From a bacterium (GTDB lineage Bacteria; Hydrothermota; Tepidihabitantia; Tepidihabitantales; Tepidihabitantaceae): 26,075 nucleotides of DNA. A program made the position numbers and the translations under genes. The notes below the pieces were generated by a model. The model did not search any database. It was not told the DNA's origin and saw only the letters and a program-made list of their open reading frames with translations. The DNA lies in contig JAWOHE010000101.1 of the NCBI GenBank assembly GCA_046485285.1, positions 1 through 26,075 of the forward strand. The letters are read 5' to 3'. Below are positions 8,406 to 16,862 of this stretch, piece after piece; the first letter of the stretch is position 1; each line of letters starts with the position of its first letter.

Positions 8406-9005
8406 TCAGGCTTCCGGTGCGGACTCCCGGCGCGCGCTGCGCCAGCGGTTCCTGGCGCCGGGGGCCGGTTCTGCCGGCCCTCGCTTCGCGGTCCGTTTGC
8501 CCGCAGCCGCCGCCATCAGCGGCCGGAGCCGCCGCCAGGTCCCGGCCAGGTGCTCGCTCACGACCTTGGTCTCGGCCAGCGCGGGCATGAAGTTGGTGTC
8601 ACCGTTCCAGCGCGGCACGACGTGGACGTGTAGATGGGTGTCCTCGCCCGCGCCCGCGACCCGGCCGAGATTCATCCCGACGTTGAAGCCGTGCGGCCGG
8701 CAGTCGCGCCTGAGGGCCCGGAGCGCGCGCTGGACCAGCCGGTCAACCGCCGCGGCCTCGTCCGGCCGGAGCCGGGCGTAGTCGGCGACGTGGCGATTGG
8801 GCGCGACCATCAGGTGGCCATTGTTGTAGGGGAACCGGTTGAGCACCGCGAAGGCCAGCTCCTCGCGGCAGAGCACGAGGTTCGCCTCGTCGTCGCGCTC
8901 GCGCCGGAGCCGGCAGAAAAGGCAGGCCTTTCGTCCCGCCGCGCACTCGGCCGAGGCCGCCCGGATGTACTCCCCGCGCCAGGGCGCCCAGAGCCTGCCC
9001 GTCAT
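8406..9005 (-). CDS. HIT family hydrolase (Ap4A hydrolase/phosphorylase-like)
   Basis: Motifs LWAPWR, CLFC, NRFPYNNGHLMV, GFNVGMNLGRVAGAG and HLHVHVVPRWNGDTNFM. Confidence 0.93.
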   Translation of the reverse strand: MTGRLWAPWRGEYIRAASAECAAGRKACLFCRLRRERDDEANLVLCREELAFAVLNRFPYNNGHLMVAPNRHVADYARLRPDEAAAVDRLVQRALRALRRDCRPHGFNVGMNLGRVAGAGEDTHLHVHVVPRWNGDTNFMPALAETKVVSEHLAGTWRRLRPLMAAAAGKRTAKRGPAEPAPGARNRWRSARRESAPEA

Positions 9006-10271
9006 CTAGAAGAGCCCGAGCTGCCGTTCGCCCTCGGCCGCGGCCGGCGGCTCATCCGCCCGGTCGGGCCGCCTCGAGCCGGGCAGGACGCTGATTGTGC
9101 CGAACACGCCGTCGTAGCCGGGCGTCTTCTCGACCTCGCCCCGGCGCATCCGCTCGACGCCGAGCGCGACCCGCTCGCCGGCGACCCGCTCGATGTCCGC
9201 CGCCGGCGCGTCGAGCAGCACCGCGAACTCGCTGCCGAGCTCGGCGCAGAGCGCGTCGTAGACCGCCTGGGTCGCCTGGGTGTCGCGGCCCTTCTCGAGC
9301 GCCTCGGCGACGACCTCCTCGAGCGGCACGAGGCTCCGGTACGGGATGACGTCGGCCGGCACCTCGTCCGGCCGCCGGTCGGCAAGCTGCTCGACGCGGT
9401 GGAGCACGCCGATCGTCAGCTTCCGCCCGCACATCGGGCAGAGGTCGCCGCTCGCCCGCGCCTGCTCGGGCGGCATCACGACCTTGCAGTTCCGGTGGCC
9501 GTCGTAATGGTACTTGCCCTCCTCGGGGAAGAACTCGATCGTGAACAGGAACCGCCCACGGTCCTTTCGGCGAAGCACGTCAAGGATGGCGTCGTAGGAG
9601 AGCTCGCAGTCGAAGACGTTGGCCTCGCGGCCGAGCCGCGACGGCGAGTGGGCATCGGAGTTCGAGACGAGCGTCCGCCCGTCGAGCGCTGAGAGCCGCC
9701 AGTTCATCGGCGGGTCGCTCGACAGCCCGGTCTCGACCGCGAAGATCCGGTCGCTCAGGTCCCCGAAGCACTCCTCGATGGTGTCGAACCCGGAGTTCGA
9801 GCCGTAGAGCGAGAACCAGGGCGTCCAGATGTGCGCCGGGATGAGGAACGCCCGCTCGTCGAGATCGAGCAGCCGGGCGAGCATCTCGTAGCTCGACAGC
9901 CCGACCGTCGGCCGGCCGTCGCTCTCGAGCTTGCCGTGCCGGCCGAGCATCGCGTTGAACTTCTCGGCGGTCTCGAAGCCGGGGACGAAGACGAGGTTGT
10001 GGATGCGGCGCAGGCGGCCGTGGGCGGAGTAGATGCTTGACACCTCGACGTTGAGGATGAAATGCGTTTCGCCGTGCCGGAACAGCCCGTCGCCCGCCGG
10101 CTCGAGCTGCTCGCGAAGCAGGCGCAGGTACTCCGGGTGGGTGAAGTCGCCGGTCGCGCACAGCGCGATGCCCTTCTCCCGGCAGTGGCGGTCGAGCGCC
10201 GGCACTTCCATCTCCCGGCTGGTCGCGCGCGAGTACCGGCTGTGGATGTGGAGGTCGGCGATGAGACGCAT
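9006..10271 (-). CDS. endonuclease Q-like PHP-domain protein
   Basis: Motifs ADLHIHSRYSRATS, TGDFTHP, PAHIWTPWFS, ETGLSSDP, SNSDAHS, EEGKYHYDGHRNC, CPMCG and PGYDGVFG. Confidence 0.92.
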   Translation of the reverse strand: MRLIADLHIHSRYSRATSREMEVPALDRHCREKGIALCATGDFTHPEYLRLLREQLEPAGDGLFRHGETHFILNVEVSSIYSAHGRLRRIHNLVFVPGFETAEKFNAMLGRHGKLESDGRPTVGLSSYEMLARLLDLDERAFLIPAHIWTPWFSLYGSNSGFDTIEECFGDLSDRIFAVETGLSSDPPMNWRLSALDGRTLVSNSDAHSPSRLGREANVFDCELSYDAILDVLRRKDRGRFLFTIEFFPEEGKYHYDGHRNCKVVMPPEQARASGDLCPMCGRKLTIGVLHRVEQLADRRPDEVPADVIPYRSLVPLEEVVAEALEKGRDTQATQAVYDALCAELGSEFAVLLDAPAADIERVAGERVALGVERMRRGEVEKTPGYDGVFGTISVLPGSRRPDRADEPPAAAEGERQLGLF

Positions 10272-10280
10272 CTCGGCCTG

Positions 10281-10349
10281 ATTCTAGGACCGGCCCCGCG
10301 CCAGTCAAGGCGGCCCGGCCTTGACCCGCCTCCCGCCCGCCCTTATCCT
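10281..10349. promoter_or_regulatory. back-to-back sigma70-like promoters, both (near-)leaderless
   Basis: Minus strand TTGACT (10308-10303), 16 nt, TAGAAT (10286-10281), with ATG 9 nt further on. Plus strand TTGACC (10321-10326), 17 nt, TATCCT (10344-10349), with GTG 6 nt further on. Confidence 0.75.
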
Positions 10350-10355
10350 GTCAGC

Positions 10356-11150
10356 GTGAAGACACTTCTCATCGCCCTGCTCGCCGCCGCGCCGGCGCTC
10401 GCCGACTACTGCGAAATCGGCGGCTCGGGCACGATAACGACCAACCGGCCCTTCTGCGGCTCCTGAGGGAGCTCGATCCGGCACCAGGTCCTGGTGCTTT
10501 CCACCGAGCTCGCCGGCCCGGCCGACCTCAGCCGCCTCGAACTGCTCTGCGCCAGCGCCGAGTACGACAGCGGCGTCTACCACAACTTCCGCCTGCTCCT
10601 CTGCCTGACGTCGCGGGCCGAGCTCATCGACAACTACGCCGACAACTACGACGGCAACGCACCGATGCTCGTCCGCGGCGACGACCTGCTCGAGGTCGGC
10701 TGGGTCAACGGCGAGTGGGACGGCTTCGACTTTGACTCGTCGTTCGCCTACGACGGCGCGTCGAACCTGCTCATCGAGTTTCGCTGGCAGGGCACCGACG
10801 GCCGGGCGGTCTACGACCGCGGCTGGTATCCGCCGGGCGGCAACCGCACCCTCGACGGCTACTCGCTCACGAGCCCGACCGGCGAGCTCCGGCCCTACTC
10901 GGTCTGCCTGCGCGTCCACTTCCTGCCCGCCGGCGTCGCGGAGCGGCCGGCGGCCGGCGGCGCGGCCCCGCTGCCGACGGTCGCCCGAGGCGCGCTGTTC
11001 CTCGCGGGCGACCGGCCCGCCGAACTGCGCGACGCCGCGGGCCGGGTCGCCGCGCGCCTCGCGCCCGGCGCCAACGATGTCTCCCGGCTCGCGCCCGGCG
11101 TCTACTTCGTCGCGGCCGGCGCCCGGGCGCGGCGGCTCGTCATCCCCTAG
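10356..11150 (+). CDS. candidate secreted selenoprotein (CxxU; TGA 10464-10466 read as Sec) with C-terminal T9SS-CTD-like domain, 264 aa
   Basis: ORFs 10062-10466 and 10494-11150 share one frame, interrupted only by one TGA. The joined protein reads MKTLLIALLAAAPALA|DYCEIGGSGTITTNRPFCGS-U-GSSIRHQVLVLSTEL...GANDVSRLAPGVYFV. A SECIS-like hairpin follows the TGA. Confidence 0.8.
10467..10511 (+). promoter_or_regulatory. putative bacterial SECIS element
   Basis: Lower stem GAGCTCG (10469-10475)/CGAGCTC (10505-10511). Upper stem GCACCAG (10481-10487)/CTGGTGC (10491-10497) with apical GTC. The CAGGTC apex matches that of the E. coli fdhF SECIS. Confidence 0.72.
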
Positions 11151-11914
11151 CGGGCGACGACCATCATCCGGACCGTCAGCGGCCCGACCGGCAGGAAGCC
11201 GCCGTGCGTGAAGAAGTGCACCCGGCCGAAACCGACCGCCTTGAGACAGCGCTTGACCTCGTGCCGGGTGTAGGCCCGCTCGCGGTGCTCCTCGTCGAAC
11301 CGGGCCAGCCCGCCGTCCGGCGCGGCCTCCCAGAACGACAGCTTGAGCGTCGAGACGCGGGTCTCCGGGTCGTAGCTATTGTCCCAGACGCTCCGGATGC
11401 CGCCGGCCTCGCGCGGCGCAACCCGGTTGCCCCAGAACACCGACAGCGAGTAGACCGTGTTCATGTCGAAGGCGAACAGCCCGCCCGGCGCGAGCGCCCG
11501 GCGCACGCAGGCGAAACAGCGCCCGAGGGCGTCCTCGGTCAGCAGGTAGTTGACCGAGTCGTAGAGGCTGATTGCCGCGTCCGCCGGCTCGGCCAGACTG
11601 AAGTCGGTGATATCGGCACGGACGAGCCTTATCGGCAGGTCGCCGGCCTTCCGCCGGAGCACGGCCAGCATCTCCTCGGAACGGTCCACGCCCGTCACCC
11701 GGTAGCCGCGCCGGGCGAGCAGGACCGACGGGATGCCGGTCCCGCAGGCGACGTCAAGCACCGTCCGCGGCTCGACCCGGAACCGTGCGAATATCCGCCC
11801 GACATAGTCCACCCAGCCCGGGTAGTCGACGTAGTGACTCATGAACCGGTCGTAGTGACGGGCGAACTCCTGGAAAGGCCGGGTGGTGGTTTCGTCGCCG
11901 GCTTGGGGCGCCAT
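11147..11914 (-). CDS. class I SAM-dependent methyltransferase
   Basis: Motifs FARHYD...DYPGW, VLDVACGTG, GVDRSEEML, DSVNYL and LAPGGLFAFDMNT. The stop shares CTAG with the convergent gene. Confidence 0.93.
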   Translation of the reverse strand: MAPQAGDETTTRPFQEFARHYDRFMSHYVDYPGWVDYVGRIFARFRVEPRTVLDVACGTGIPSVLLARRGYRVTGVDRSEEMLAVLRRKAGDLPIRLVRADITDFSLAEPADAAISLYDSVNYLLTEDALGRCFACVRRALAPGGLFAFDMNTVYSLSVFWGNRVAPREAGGIRSVWDNSYDPETRVSTLKLSFWEAAPDGGLARFDEEHRERAYTRHEVKRCLKAVGFGRVHFFTHGGFLPVGPLTVRMMVVAR

Positions 11915-12001: not shown

Positions 12002-13915
12002 ATGACAGCGGAACCGGTCGTCCACGGCCCGAGCCTGCTCTCCGAGCTCGACGTCTGGCTGTTCCGGCAGGGCGCCCACTACCGGCTCCAGGACCACCTC
12101 GGCGCCCACCCGATGACCGTCGACGGCCGGCCCGGGGCGCTCTTCGCGGTCTGGGCGCCCTCAGCCGCCGGGGTCGCGGTCGTCGGCGACTTCAACGGCT
12201 GGGACCCGGCCGCGTCGCCGCTCGCGGTGCGCTGGGACTCCTCCGGCATCTGGGAGGGCTTCGTCCCCGGCGCGGCGTCCGGCGCGCGCTACAAGTACCG
12301 CATCGAGCCCGGCCGCGGCGGGCCGGCGCTCGAGAAGACCGACCCCCTGGGGTCCTGGTTCGAGCCGCCGCCGGGCAACGCCGCGCTCATCCACGAGCTC
12401 GGCCACGACTGGCAGGACGACGACTGGCTCGCCGCCCGGCTGGAGACCGACCAGCACCGCCGGCCGCTGGCCATCTACGAGCTCCACGCTGGTTCCTGGC
12501 GCCGCGGCCCGGGCAACCGCCTGCTCGACTGGGCCGGGCTCGCCGACGCGCTCGTTCCCTACATCCTCGACGCCGGCTTCAGCCACGTCGAGCTCCTGCC
12601 GGTGATGGAGCACCCCTTCCGCGGCTCCTGGGGCTACCAGGCCCTCGGCTACTTCGCGCCCGCCGCCCGCCACGGCGCGCCCGGCCAGTTCTGCGCCTTC
12701 GTCGACCGGCTCCACCGCGCCGGCATCGGCGTCATCCTCGACTGGTCGCCCGCCCACTTCCCGGACGACCTGCACGGCCTCGCCCGGTTCGACGGCACCT
12801 GCCTCTACGAACACGAAGACCCGCGCCGCGGTCGCCACCCGGACTGGCACACCTGCATCTTCAACTACGGCCGGCCCGAGGTCGCGTGCTTCCTCATCTC
12901 CAGCGCGCTCTTCTGGCTCGACCGCTGTCACGCCGACGGGCTCCGCATCGACGCCGTCGCCTCGATGCTCTACCTCGACTACTCCCGCCCGGACGGCGAG
13001 TGGTTGCCCAACCCCTTCGGCGGCCGGGAGAACCTCGAGGCGATGGAGTTCCTGCGCAGGCTCAACACCGAGGCCTACGCCCGCTGCCCGGGTACGTTCA
13101 CCGTCGCCGAGGAATCCACCGCCTGGCCCGGCGTCACCCGGCCGGTCCACCTCGGCGGCCTCGGCTTCGGCTACAAGTGGAACATGGGCTGGATGCACGA
13201 CACCCTCCAGTACTTCGGCCGCGACCCGGTCCACCGCCGCTGGCACCACGACGAGCTCACCTTCGGCCTCAGCTACGCCCACTCCGAGAACTTCATCCTC
13301 CCGCTCTCCCACGACGAGGTCGTCCACGGCAAACGAAGCCTGCTCGAGAAGATGCCCGGCGACGACTGGCGCAGGTTCGCCGGGCTCCGCCTGCTTCTCG
13401 GCTGGCAGTACTGCCACCCGGGCGCGAAGCTCCTGTTCGGCGGCGGCGAGTTCGGACAGCGTCGGGAATGGGACCACGACTCCTCGCTCGACTGGCACCT
13501 CCTCGACGCGCCCGCGCACTCGGGCGTCCTACGCTGGGTCCGCGACCTCAACCGCCTCTACCGCGACCACCCGGCCCTCCACGCCCTCGACCGCGACCCG
13601 GCCGGCTTCCGCTGGGTCGTCGCCTCGGACTCCGCCAACAGCGTCTTCGCCTTCCTGCGCCGTGACGGCACGGGCCGCGACCTGCTCGTCGTCGCCAACT
13701 TCACCCCGGTGCCCCGGGCCGGCTACCGGGTCGGCGTGCCCGCGGCCGGTCGCTGGCGCGAGCTCCTCAACAGCGACGCGGCCGACTACGGCGGCTCTGG
13801 GCTCGGTAACCTCGGCCGGGTCCGGGCCGAAGCCGTGCCCTGCCACGATTTCCCGCACTCGCTGGACCTGGACCTGCCGCCGCTCGCGCTCGTTGTCCTG
13901 GAGCCCGCCGGATGA
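12002..13915 (+). CDS. glgB: 1,4-alpha-glucan branching enzyme (GH13)
   Basis: Motifs FAVWAP, IYELHAGSW, MEHPFRGSWGYQ, DGLRIDAVASMLYLDYSR, AEEST, KWNMGWMHD and LSHDEVVHGK. Confidence 0.97.
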   Translation: MTAEPVVHGPSLLSELDVWLFRQGAHYRLQDHLGAHPMTVDGRPGALFAVWAPSAAGVAVVGDFNGWDPAASPLAVRWDSSGIWEGFVPGAASGARYKYRIEPGRGGPALEKTDPLGSWFEPPPGNAALIHELGHDWQDDDWLAARLETDQHRRPLAIYELHAGSWRRGPGNRLLDWAGLADALVPYILDAGFSHVELLPVMEHPFRGSWGYQALGYFAPAARHGAPGQFCAFVDRLHRAGIGVILDWSPAHFPDDLHGLARFDGTCLYEHEDPRRGRHPDWHTCIFNYGRPEVACFLISSALFWLDRCHADGLRIDAVASMLYLDYSRPDGEWLPNPFGGRENLEAMEFLRRLNTEAYARCPGTFTVAEESTAWPGVTRPVHLGGLGFGYKWNMGWMHDTLQYFGRDPVHRRWHHDELTFGLSYAHSENFILPLSHDEVVHGKRSLLEKMPGDDWRRFAGLRLLLGWQYCHPGAKLLFGGGEFGQRREWDHDSSLDWHLLDAPAHSGVLRWVRDLNRLYRDHPALHALDRDPAGFRWVVASDSANSVFAFLRRDGTGRDLLVVANFTPVPRAGYRVGVPAAGRWRELLNSDAADYGGSGLGNLGRVRAEAVPCHDFPHSLDLDLPPLALVVLEPAG

Positions 13916-15318
13916 CCGCGCCCCGGGTCTGCCTCCACGGCCACTGCTACCAGCCCGACCGCGCCGACCCCCACACCGGCTGGGTCCCGGCCGACGCCGC
14001 GGCCGTGCCCTTCCACGACTGGAACCGGCGCATCACTGCCGAATGCTACGCGGCCAACCTCCGCGTCGGCAACTACGCCCGCACCAGCTTCAACTTCGGC
14101 CCGACCCTCCTCGCCTGGCTCGAGCGCGAGTCGCCCGCGGACCACTCCGGCATCATCGCGGCCGACCGGCACGGCCGCGCCCGCTTCGGCGGCCACGGCC
14201 CGGCCATCGCCCAGGCCTGGGGCCACAGCATCCTCCCCCTCGACACCGACCGCGACCGCCGGACCCAGGTCCGCTGGGGCGTCCGCGACTTCGAGCACCG
14301 CTTCGGCCGGGAGCCCGAAGGGATCTGGCTTCCCGAGACCGCGGTCGACCTCCCGACCCTCGAAACCGTCGCCGATGCCGGCATCCGGTTCACCATCCTC
14401 GCCCCCCACCAGGCCGGGCACGGACCGGGCGCGTACCGATGCCCCTTGCCCTCGGGCCGCGAGCTCGCGCTCTTCATCTACGACGCCGCGCTCGCCGGCG
14501 ACATCGCGTTCGGCGGCCTGCTCGCCGACGCCGGCGACTTCGCCCGCCGCCTGCTCTCGGCCGGGGGCGACTTCGTCAGCGTCGCGACCGACGGCGAGAC
14601 CTACGGCCACCATCACCCCCACGGCGAACTCGCGCTCGCCGGCTGTCTCGACCGCCTCGAGGCCGCCGGCGCCCGGCTCACCACCTACGGACAGGAACTC
14701 GCCGACCACCCGCCCCGGGAGAACGCCGCGCTCGTCGAGCGGACCTCCTGGAGCTGCGCCCACGGCGTCGAGCGCTGGCGCCGCGCCTGCGGCTGTTCCA
14801 CCGGCCGCCACCCCGGCTGGCGGCAGGACTGGCGCGCGCCGCTCCGCGCCGCGGTCGAATGGCTGCGCGACGCCATCGCGCCGGCCTGGGAACAACGGCT
14901 CGCGCCGCTCTTCCACGACCCGTGGGCCCTGCGCGACGACCACATCGAAATCATCCTCGACCCCGGCTCGGCCCCGGCTGTTCTCTCGCGCCACGCCCGC
15001 AGGGTCCTCGCCGGGTCGGACCGGGCGCTGGCCGCCGGTCTGCTCGAAATCCAGCGCCGGCTCCTGCTCTCCTTCACCAGTTGCGGCTGGTTCTTCGACG
15101 ACATCACCGAGCCGGCCTCGGTCCAGGTCATCGGCTCGGCCGCGCGGGCGGCCGAGCTCGCGCGCCAGCACCTCGGGCTCGAACTCGAAGACGGCCTCAC
15201 CGACATCCTCCACAACGCTCGGAGCAACCGCCCGGAAGTCGGCACCGGGGCGGACATCTACCGGCGCGGACAGGAAGCAATGCCGGGTGCAGATTGCAGG
15301 ATGCAGACATCAAAGTGA
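13912..15318 (+). CDS. GH57-family glycoside hydrolase with DUF3536-like C-terminal region
   Basis: ATGA overlap with glgB. Motifs HGHCYQP, SFNFGPTLLAWLE, GIWLPETAVD, ATDGETYGHH, SWSCAHGVERW and FTSCGWFFDD. Confidence 0.9.
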   Translation: MTAPRVCLHGHCYQPDRADPHTGWVPADAAAVPFHDWNRRITAECYAANLRVGNYARTSFNFGPTLLAWLERESPADHSGIIAADRHGRARFGGHGPAIAQAWGHSILPLDTDRDRRTQVRWGVRDFEHRFGREPEGIWLPETAVDLPTLETVADAGIRFTILAPHQAGHGPGAYRCPLPSGRELALFIYDAALAGDIAFGGLLADAGDFARRLLSAGGDFVSVATDGETYGHHHPHGELALAGCLDRLEAAGARLTTYGQELADHPPRENAALVERTSWSCAHGVERWRRACGCSTGRHPGWRQDWRAPLRAAVEWLRDAIAPAWEQRLAPLFHDPWALRDDHIEIILDPGSAPAVLSRHARRVLAGSDRALAAGLLEIQRRLLLSFTSCGWFFDDITEPASVQVIGSAARAAELARQHLGLELEDGLTDILHNARSNRPEVGTGADIYRRGQEAMPGADCRMQTSK

Positions 15319-15374
15319 TGAAACGGCCAGGCTCGGGAATTCTGCAATCTGCCATCTGCAATTCGCATTCTGCA
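15288..15374. repeat. inverted arrays of TGCAGAT/ATCTGCA-type heptamers
   Basis: TGCAGAT TGCAGGA TGCAGAC (15288-15308) and TTCTGCA ATCTGCC ATCTGCA ATTCGCA TTCTGCA (15340-15374). Confidence 0.85.
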
Positions 15375-16862
15375 ATGGTCCGGTTCGTCCCCCGCTCCGC
15401 CGGCGTCCTCCTCCACGTCACGAACCTGCCCGGCCCGCACGGCATCGGCGACTTCGGCCCCGCCGCGCGCGCTTTCGCGGACTGGCTCGCCGCCGCCGGC
15501 TTCCGCTGGTGGCAGGTTCTGCCGCTCAACCCGACCGACCCCTACTACGGCAGTTCGCCCTACCGGAGTCCCTCCTCGGCCGCGCTCAGCCCGGGCTTCC
15601 TGAGCCCGGACCTGCTCGTCACGGACGGCCTGCTCGAACCGACGAAACCGCGCCGGGCCTTCCCATCCTCCCGCGTTGACTACCCCGCCACCCGGCACTG
15701 GAAGGATCATCTGCTTGACCTCGCCTGCGCGCGCATCGTCCCCGCACCCGGCTTTCGCCGGTTCCGCGCCCGCGAGGCCGACTGGCTCGACGACTTCGCG
15801 CTCTTCACTGCGCTCAAAGGCCGCTTCGGCCAGCGGCCCTGGACCGACTGGCCGCCGCCCCTGCGCGACCGCGACCCGGCCGCGCTCGCCGACGCCCGTC
15901 GTACGCTCGGCCCGGAACTGCGCCGCACGGCGCTCGGCCAGTATCTCCTCGACCGCCAATGGCAGTCCCTGCGCGCGCACTGCCGCCGGCTCGGCATCGG
16001 TATCATCGGCGACCTGCCCATCTACGCCGACCCCGACTCGGCCGACGTCTGGGCGCACCGGGAGTTCTTCCTGCTTGACCGCCTGGGCCGCCCCCGCTTC
16101 GCGGCCGGCGTCCCGCCCGACGCATTCTCCGCAACCGGCCAGCTCTGGGGCAACCCGGTGTACGACTGGCCGGCACTGACCCGGGATGGCTTTCGCTGGT
16201 GGCTTGACCGCGCCGGTCGGGCGCTCCGGCTCTTCGACGTCGTGCGGCTCGACCACTTCCGGGGCCTGGTCGCTTACTGGCAGGTGCCGGCCGGCGCGCC
16301 GACCGCCGAGCGCGGCCGCTGGGTTCGCGCGCCCGCGTCGCGCCTGCTCGCCGCGCTGCGCGGTCGGTTCCCGGACCTGCCCTTCATCGCCGAGGACCTC
16401 GGCTTCATCACTCCCGACGTCGAGCGCGCGCGCCGTCACGCCGGCCTGCCCGGGATGAAAGTCGCGGTCTTCGGCTTCGGCACGGATGACAGCATCCACC
16501 GGCCCGACCGCGCCGGCCCCGGCTCGGTGCTGTACTCCTCCACCCACGACACGGACACGCTCCGGGGCTGGCTCGAGACCGAGGCCCGGCCCGATGAGCT
16601 CCACCGGCTTCGCTCCTGGCTCGGGGACAACACCACCGGCAGACTGCTCCGCGCGTGCTTCGAGGCCCCCGCGCCGCTCGTCATCGTGCCGGCGCAGGAC
16701 CTGCTCGGGCTCGGCAGCCGGGCGCGGATGAACCGGCCGGGCACGACCGGACGCAACTGGCGCTGGCGGCTCCGGCCGGGTCAACTCACAGCCCGCCTCG
16801 CTGCCCGCCTGCGCCGCCGCCTCGCCGCGGCGAACCGCCTGACGGTCAGTCCCGGACCGTGA
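15375..16862 (+). CDS. malQ: 4-alpha-glucanotransferase (amylomaltase, GH77)
   Basis: Motifs RSAGVLLHVTNLPG, WQVLPLNP, GDLPIY, GVPPDAFSATGQLWGNPVYDW, RLDHFRG, IAEDLG, THDTDT and RMNRPG. The real start is ATG 15375, not the 13662 start in the ORF track. Confidence 0.96.
   Translation: MVRFVPRSAGVLLHVTNLPGPHGIGDFGPAARAFADWLAAAGFRWWQVLPLNPTDPYYGSSPYRSPSSAALSPGFLSPDLLVTDGLLEPTKPRRAFPSSRVDYPATRHWKDHLLDLACARIVPAPGFRRFRAREADWLDDFALFTALKGRFGQRPWTDWPPPLRDRDPAALADARRTLGPELRRTALGQYLLDRQWQSLRAHCRRLGIGIIGDLPIYADPDSADVWAHREFFLLDRLGRPRFAAGVPPDAFSATGQLWGNPVYDWPALTRDGFRWWLDRAGRALRLFDVVRLDHFRGLVAYWQVPAGAPTAERGRWVRAPASRLLAALRGRFPDLPFIAEDLGFITPDVERARRHAGLPGMKVAVFGFGTDDSIHRPDRAGPGSVLYSSTHDTDTLRGWLETEARPDELHRLRSWLGDNTTGRLLRACFEAPAPLVIVPAQDLLGLGSRARMNRPGTTGRNWRWRLRPGQLTARLAARLRRRLAAANRLTVSPGP

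Follow-up and report, generated by a model that had tools for sequence, protein, structure and literature searches.

A probable exported selenoprotein with a Cys-x-x-Sec turn in a predicted beta-sandwich, encoded by a frame that standard gene calling splits at its TGA

The DNA considered here (the window, 26,075 nt in full) comprises positions 1 to 26,075 of contig JAWOHE010000101.1 in GenBank assembly GCA_046485285.1, from a bacterium of the Hydrothermota lineage, and the gene of interest is a single 264-codon frame on its forward strand that runs from GTG 10356 to TAG 11148–11150 and contains one in-frame TGA, at codon 37 (Table 1). Translation from GTG 10356–10358 gives MKTLLIALLAAAPALA-DYCEIGGSGTITTNRPFCGS, then the TGA at 10464–10466, then GSSIRHQVLVLSTEL and onward to the TAG, which confirms the frame, the coordinates and the length of 264 residues set out in an earlier reading of the same letters (the original prediction). 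Calling with genetic code table 11 returns only the piece at 10494..11150 (218 residues, GTG start), and the upstream piece falls in a frame at 10062..10466 whose 5′ part is overlapped by a minus-strand frame at 9006..10271; the gene is thus split by the caller, also as the original prediction had it. We infer from comparison of sequences, with a probability that we put at close to 0.9, that the locus is a genuine selenoprotein gene in which the TGA is decoded as selenocysteine (Sec, U). This reading, which the original prediction had advanced, is strongly supported by conservation of the TGA, by a hairpin of the selenocysteine insertion sequence (SECIS) type and by the Sec machinery of the genome.

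To establish how the TGA behaves among relatives, we searched all six frames of 61 genomes from the class to which this bacterium belongs, with stops read through. The search gave 13 full-length matches at E ≤ 1e-47, namely the window and 12 places in 11 other genomes, at 39–54% identity. All 13 full-length orthologues have exactly one TGA, always within P-[FY]-C-G-[SGT]-U, and four residues of the window protein (Cys34, Gly35, Sec37 and Cys65) are invariant across them. Weaker full-length matches (~30–37% identity) have no stop and read P-F-W-G-x-[TNQ...] at this place, so we take them to be non-Sec paralogues; two further weak matches carry mixed stops, TAG and TAA in one (G002) and TGA and TAA in the other (G025:C226). 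In a scan of species representatives (one genome per prokaryote species), the TGA motif was present in 12/12 loci, five of which were new and are labelled Hyd24-12 (one), uncultured bacterium (two) and Acidobacteriota (two).

A metagenome scan added 79 loci, corresponding to 81 rows aligned to a profile hidden Markov model, 71 of which cover the motif. An in-frame TGA is present in 61 of these informative rows, one row reads C-x-x-C (L091) and nine have neither. The scan did not select for TGA, since the pattern that was effective in it lies about 100 codons downstream and the other pattern demanded a Cys codon at this position. Sorted by the placement of Cys, the 61 TGA rows comprise 55 of the form CxxU (Cys at −3), two CxU (−2) and four CU (−1). 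Throughout, down to about 25% identity, the TGA is conserved together with the sequence that flanks it on both sides. A TGA kept at one codon in every close orthologue, and in dozens of more distant ones too, goes far beyond what chance would produce. The original prediction had proposed as checks a conserved TGA flanked by conservation on both sides, which is what all three sets display, and a Cys aligned at position 37, which we see in two homologues, L091 (P-F-C-A-G-C) and the database protein P0179 (P-F-C-G-D-C). Among distant metagenome relatives the Cys moves closer to the TGA, with P-F-G-C-U in L126, L127, L130 and L117 and P-F-C-H-U in L099 and L103; in three of the four C-U forms a Gly follows the Sec to give G-C-U-G.

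A recoding signal lies where a bacterial SECIS (bSECIS) would be sought. Beginning 13 nt past the UGA, a hairpin with an 8-bp stem, a GUC loop and a spacing of 21 nt between UGA and loop has a folding energy of −11.4 kcal/mol. The bSECIS consensus describes a stem of no fewer than 4 bp, closed by a loop of 3–9 nt that has G in its first two places, also given as G followed by G or U, with 16–37 nt between UGA and loop and an energy of at most −7.5 kcal/mol, and the window hairpin satisfies this model (PMC13188914, constraints of its Fig. 2). The stem is paired in 96/96 cells across 12/12 orthologues, compared with 18–54% in controls in which the partner was slid by 1–3 columns. Compensatory changes occur in two of the eight stem pairs, at both of which C-G becomes U-A, and at one of them a synonymous substitution in a Val codon accompanies the replacement of His by Tyr. 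The loop is made by the CAG-GUN codons of a Gln-Val pair, of which the Gln is conserved throughout the superfamily; distant clades use another register (CUACC-AGGU-GGUAG) that still places GGU at the apex.

The hairpin also separates Sec genes from their relatives. A strict version of the bSECIS test, which admits perfect stems alone, is passed by 52 of the 71 unique Sec genes, as opposed to 1 of 19 non-Sec homologues examined at the equivalent codon; other in-frame places in the same genes pass in 25 of 608 cases. Relaxing the energy limit to −5 kcal/mol raises the Sec genes that pass to 65/71. Measured against shuffles of synonymous codons, the stretch folds with higher stability in 54 of the 57 unique Sec genes from metagenomes (mean z −1.34), and the corresponding figures for non-Sec homologues are 9/19 and −0.35, with z +1.2 for the CxxC form L091. 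An Rfam scan of 10300–10700 gave nothing meaningful (best score 17.8 bits, against a cut-off of 36 bits).

The genome is equipped for Sec insertion. The assembly (2.34 Mb in 102 contigs, 88% complete, 69% G+C) contains all four of the genes selA, selB, selC and selD that the original prediction had asked for: tRNA-Sec (selC) scores 73.2 bits against a cut-off of 47 and is typed by ARAGORN as SeC with anticodon tca, and selA (537.7 bits), selB (357.5 bits) and selD (334.8 bits) all exceed their curated cut-offs. The selD gene has an in-frame TGA of its own, so the organism has at least one further selenoprotein, a Sec-type SelD; selD and selB adjoin on the same strand (C37:9674-12542, loci L009 and L015). 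Elsewhere in the genome a second match to the tRNA-Sec model, at C88:32589-32674, has exactly the gathering score of 47 bits and lies alongside a match of 42.7 bits; these are probably long-arm tRNAs for Ser or Leu and not a second selC. All 12 genomes that carry the TGA form among the 61 searched have selA, as do five of five distant carriers (17/17 in total). Because 57 of the 61 relatives have selA in any case, its co-occurrence with the TGA is only weakly informative within the lineage. Genome-wide reassignment of TGA was considered and rejected: TGA terminates 520 of the 901 open frames of at least 500 codons (TAG 327, TAA 54; at 69% G+C some of these frames are not genes), as the original prediction had anticipated from other genes in the window, and 6 of the 12 genes translated in the comparison themselves terminate at TGA.

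Table 1. Features of the selenoprotein locus, in window coordinates
Feature	Position	Strand	Basis
Complete selenoprotein gene (predicted), 264 codons + TAG, one Sec-UGA	10356..11150	+	Translation, orthologue conservation
Putative signal peptide, residues 1–16: K2, core LLIALLAAAP, A-L-A before Asp17	10356..10403	+	Read from sequence
Predicted lectin/CBM-like beta-sandwich domain, residues 17–197, holds Cys-Sec pair	10404..10946	+	AlphaFold2 model
Cys34 codon TGC, partner of Sec37	10455..10457	+	Invariant in 13/13 orthologues
Sec37 codon TGA	10464..10466	+	Position kept among homologues
SECIS-type hairpin GGCACCAG-GUC-CUGGUGCU	10480..10498	+	Pairing, energy, bSECIS model
C-terminal sorting-type domain, ~residues 186–264	10911..11147	+	58 same-genome matches, orthologue C-termini
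Promoter-like site TTGACC, 17 nt, TATCCT	10321..10349	+	9/12 consensus matches; shuffles mean 0.0 sites; consensus match alone

The N-terminus of the joined protein has the pattern of a signal peptide, as do those of 13/13 orthologues, with cleavage presumably after A-L-A. Beyond it, the joined protein matches no Pfam or NCBIfam model at E ≤ 1, and a sequence-profile search of the PDB returned 0 matches at E ≤ 1. An AlphaFold2 model built from 81 sequences has high confidence (predicted local distance difference test score, pLDDT, 95.6; predicted template modelling score, pTM, 0.91) and describes an all-beta sandwich with one short helix, Cys34 being at the end of strand 2 and Sec37 in the beta-hairpin turn that leads to strand 3. 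This model supersedes an earlier one from 13 sequences, which was poor (pLDDT 66) and gave uninformative results with Foldseek. With the 81-sequence model Foldseek returned nothing at E ≤ 0.001; comparison with VIA-align gave structural matches with Z 9.7–11.5, a root-mean-square deviation of 3.2–3.6 Å over 141–156 residues and 6–8% identity. These were the mycobacteriophage Bxb1 tail tip (9d93, Z 11.5), the N-terminal domains of a polyvinyl-alcohol esterase (9kqz, Z 10.4) and of the acetyl-xylan esterase PbeAcXE (7tog, Z 10.4), the Cwp84 lectin-like domain (4ci7, Z 10.2) and a PHR domain (3gbw, Z 9.7). The matches to 9d93, 9kqz, 7tog and 4ci7 (Z 10.2–11.5 over 144–156 residues) are those of a jelly-roll beta-sandwich, and by the model the N-terminal domain is a beta-sandwich of the type found in lectins and carbohydrate-binding modules (CBMs). 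We found no Pfam CBM model that matches it and no sequence relative in the PDB that would assign it to a defined CBM family. The structures that share the fold are mostly surface or ligand-binding modules, but at 6–8% identity a common fold is no proof of a common ligand, and none of them is known with Sec. A thioredoxin-fold oxidoreductase of the CxxU/UxxC kind was also considered and ruled out, the model being all-beta and its best structural matches beta-sandwiches; the non-thioredoxin, beta-rich domain of the original prediction is in this respect borne out.

The C-terminal stretch of ~70–75 residues behaves differently in searches, with 58 further matches elsewhere in this genome at E ≤ 0.001, which suggests that many of its proteins carry a common sorting signal. 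The matches lie at the ends of 58 other frames (e.g., C80:21254-21469 and C37:3311-3541), with clusters on C33, C53 and C62. Curated models of the sorting and FlgD types recognize the C-termini of some orthologues (TIGR04183 in 7/13, PF18962 in 5/13 and PF13860 in 4/13).

The N-terminal domain belongs to a much larger superfamily. A profile of the domain finds 1,231 database representatives at E ≤ 0.001, of which 35 reach E ≤ 1e-30. Its settings include single copies followed by a sorting tail, tandem triplets (in proteins of ~560 residues) and giant surface proteins that combine it with PKD, disaggregatase-repeat and CBM96 domains. A single fusion to a formylglycine-generating enzyme (FGE)-sulfatase-like domain is seen in a non-Sec relative of 547 residues, P0064, which has Cys34, Pro37, Cys65 and Cys83. 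Among the matches listed, 354 rows were re-aligned and 109 of them extend over both positions 34 and 37. The residue at 37 varies among these, and only P0179 reads C-x-x-C. The non-Sec paralogues (e.g., L030–L035; ~1,200 representatives) share with the Sec proteins P32, R42, Q44, N97-Y98, W121, Y132, N137-L138, E141 and R164. In the paralogues the domain is often found with the C-terminal sorting domain that the Sec proteins have, as a tandem triplet, or inside giant surface proteins with CBM96, PKD or FGE-sulfatase domains. They differ in having Trp or another residue at 34 and no fixed residue at 37, and they lack both the TGA and the hairpin. With the motif columns masked, we built a tree from the 147 domain rows, out of 482, that cover at least 150 of the 196 profile columns. 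A split with support 0.78 places all 74 Sec rows on the same side. That side also holds 15 non-Sec rows, including both CxxC forms and the Arg-bearing protein P0003 described below, and strict monophyly of the Sec forms is for this reason rejected; the other 56 non-Sec rows lie opposite. Only the Cys-Sec pair is common to all Sec clades; Cys65 and Cys83-His84 are clade-specific and are kept in the WOR-3 clade.

In the proposed mechanism, UGA codon 37 would be decoded as Sec, so that one gene yields an exported protein of 264 residues. SelB with Sec-tRNA(Sec) would be recruited by the 8-bp, GUC-loop hairpin 13 nt past the UGA, and the loop of this hairpin would be supplied by the Gln-Val codons of the conserved peptide R-[HY]-Q-V-L-V-L. 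The product would consist of a signal peptide, a beta-sandwich carrying Cys34 and Sec37, and a C-terminal sorting-type domain common to many predicted exported proteins of the genome. As to function, we give slightly less than even odds to the proposal that the Cys-Sec pair forms a reversible selenenylsulfide and serves extracytoplasmic redox chemistry, or the capture of thiols or chalcogens, on a ligand-binding scaffold. All observed spacings, from adjacent C-U to C-x-x-U, can close a selenenylsulfide. An adjacent Cys-Sec pair forms such a bond in thioredoxin reductase, within its Gly-Cys-Sec-Gly redox centre, and the G-C-U-G of three metagenome relatives is also the motif of the animal enzyme. 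The likeness is local: four metagenome relatives have an adjacent Cys-Sec pair at the same turn, but their fold and organisms are unrelated to those of animal thioredoxin reductase, and the window protein itself has CxxU.

The main alternative for the function of the same Sec-decoded gene, which we regard as less likely, is that the pair binds a soft metal or metalloid (e.g., Cu, Hg, Zn, Ni or As) with no redox cycling. The C-G-x-U-G turn of the beta-hairpin presumably resembles a metal-binding knuckle, the exported protein has no evident reductant, and the WOR-3 clade conserves the additional Cys65 and Cys83-His84. The spacing between Cys and Sec varies (55 CxxU, two CxU and four CU), as it does in several metal-related families with a CU motif (PMC13188914 Table 1). 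Against this, only Cys34 and Sec37 are kept across clades; because Cys65 and Cys83 are lost in the other Sec clades, a site with four ligands is not general, and no genes for metal transport or resistance lie nearby.

The remaining alternatives dispute Sec decoding itself. Readthrough of the UGA by some other route (a suppressor particular to the lineage, or near-cognate insertion of Trp, Cys or Arg), with the hairpin merely slowing the ribosome, could draw on P0003, in which a near-identical strain encodes the ordinary residue Arg at this place. We consider it very unlikely: selA is present in 17/17 carrier genomes tested, the hairpin fits a bSECIS of the SelB type (G-U at the start of the loop, spacing 19–24 nt), a Cys always lies within three residues before the UGA, no ordinary residue other than Cys recurs at this codon in homologues, and TGA ends these same genes. 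That the UGA simply terminates, leaving a 36-residue stub beside a separate protein of 218 residues, or that the locus is a pseudogene or an assembly error, is barely credible, for although gene callers using table 11 yield exactly these two pieces and TGA is the commonest stop of the genome, the TGA is kept in 13/13, 12/12 and 61/71 cases across at least three labelled phylum-level groups with both flanks conserved, the downstream piece alone would have neither strands 1–2 nor a signal peptide, and the hairpin is specific to members that bear the TGA.

Several observations nonetheless weigh against the selenoprotein interpretation or parts of it. Cys forms are very rare, with 2 CxxC rows against 74 unique Sec rows, which is unusual for selenoprotein families, and the spacing of Cys and Sec differs among relatives (CxxU, CxU, CU). 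One protein in the ENA database, P0003, has Arg at the site; it is identical at 178 of 181 positions (98%) to the TGA locus L062 and is the sole sequence with Arg, which points to a strain-level change or an error and not to a conserved state. Under the strict perfect-stem test 19 of 71 Sec genes fail, and 6/71 still do so at −5 kcal/mol; the covariation amounts to two pairs, among related sequences; and the hairpin overlaps the peptide motif R.Q.L, which is conserved in non-Sec relatives too. With regard to export, the C-terminus of the window protein itself matches no curated model (none at E ≤ 1 in Pfam and NCBIfam, and none at E ≤ 0.01). Components of the type IX secretion system (T9SS) give little guidance in a genome that is 88% complete, since SprA_N and TIGR04189 found no match but controls were equally silent, and PorV reached a sub-threshold ~20 bits. 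The label of T9SS cargo in the original prediction therefore stands only in part, agreeing with the 7/13 orthologue C-termini that match TIGR04183 but not with the C-terminus of the window protein itself, which misses E ≤ 0.01; the searches for the secretion machinery do not add to its support. With regard to function, there is no obvious extracellular reductant, and among the neighbours of five orthologues no family is common to all loci, so that genomic context offers no functional lead.

A 2026 review lists 119 prokaryotic selenoprotein families and subfamilies (PMC13188914 Table 1). None of them has such an architecture, and the Pfam and NCBIfam models of these families match nothing here (families represented only in CDD or PANTHER lay outside the scan); across the 13 orthologues only the C-terminal sorting and FlgD-type models match. 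The statement in the original prediction that no described selenoprotein family fits is upheld to this extent. In the text available to us, the BSepDB paper counts 111 families from earlier reports, and the deep-Sep paper (PMC12013277) presents nine new families, none alike, with a method that may miss selenoproteins without Cys homologues. Full-text searches of the literature gave no description of such a family, though the supplementary tables of BSepDB and deep-Sep might list further ones. We rate this as a new selenoprotein family, with decoding of a known kind and with a fold, a cellular location and a near-absence of Cys forms that are new.

Bacterial selenoproteins with CxxU or UxxC and a bSECIS (e.g., SelW-like, AhpD-like and GrdA; PMC13188914) share with the window gene a UGA in Cys-x-x-Sec, a downstream bSECIS and selA/B/C/D. 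The window protein differs from them in being, by the model, a lectin/CBM-like beta-sandwich and not of thioredoxin-like or AhpD-like fold, in its predicted export, in its sorting-type domain and in the rarity of its Cys forms. An extracytoplasmic selenoprotein of the outer-membrane-barrel type (PMC13188914 Table 1) has the same local motif, F-C-x-x-U, but there is no sequence relation (no NCBIfam match at E ≤ 1), and the window protein is predicted to be a soluble beta-sandwich with a sorting domain.

Members of the family come from WOR-3, Hyd24-12 and Acidobacteriota as well as from many lineages of metagenomes. At odds just short of even, we propose that the window protein is the first to be recognized in a large family, spread over several phyla, of selenoproteins that have a lectin-type scaffold and reside outside the cell or on its surface, in which Sec is near-obligatory and the Cys-Sec turn captures, or handles by redox chemistry, thiols, polysulfide or chalcophile metals. 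On the same tentative proposal, the near-absence of Cys forms would explain how the family escaped pipelines built on Cys/Sec pairs. Current selenoprotein finders need Cys homologues, as PMC12013277 states, and this family, which has almost none, would lie in their blind spot. If the proposal is true, selenium is used here outside the cytoplasm and without a thioredoxin fold; WOR-3 and other little-studied lineages would use selenium in an exported domain of lectin/CBM-like fold, and the protein would be a concrete candidate for extracellular selenium chemistry. The SECIS would also be a clean case of a recoding element that arose inside coding sequence, its loop coming from Gln-Val codons of a motif shared with non-Sec relatives.

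Recognition of the Sec codon also bears on annotation. Public records for the window protein and its relatives are 'hypothetical protein' entries of 218–242 residues from metagenome-assembled genomes of candidate division WOR-3, and their gene calls begin shortly past the TGA, without a signal peptide, in agreement with what the original prediction had said of the downstream piece. Among the matches listed, 37 domain rows (a mixed set) start at profile positions 40–66, as expected where genes are cut at the TGA. Dozens of public records are truncated there, and reading the codon as Sec gives the proteins back their signal peptide and strands 1 and 2.

Turning to the surroundings of the gene, its convergent neighbour in the window is a gene for an S-adenosylmethionine-dependent methyltransferase (11147–11914, minus strand), and the two overlap by four bases at their stop codons. 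Further downstream are a glycogen-branching-enzyme-like gene (12002–13915) and a 4-alpha-glucanotransferase gene within 13662–16862. The long upstream frames at 9006–10271 (minus strand) and 8634–9692 (plus strand) have no Pfam match. At two other loci, L056:3761-5049 and L059:3820-5114, the selenoprotein gene is followed by a frame of ~150 residues and then by a protein with a 4Fe-4S ferredoxin domain; among the loci checked this protein is confined to these two, and it does not occur in the window. Immediately upstream of the window gene, where no Shine-Dalgarno sequence is visible, the promoter-like −35/−10 pair of Table 1 ends 7 nt before the GTG, and the mRNA, if the site is real, would therefore be leaderless or nearly so.

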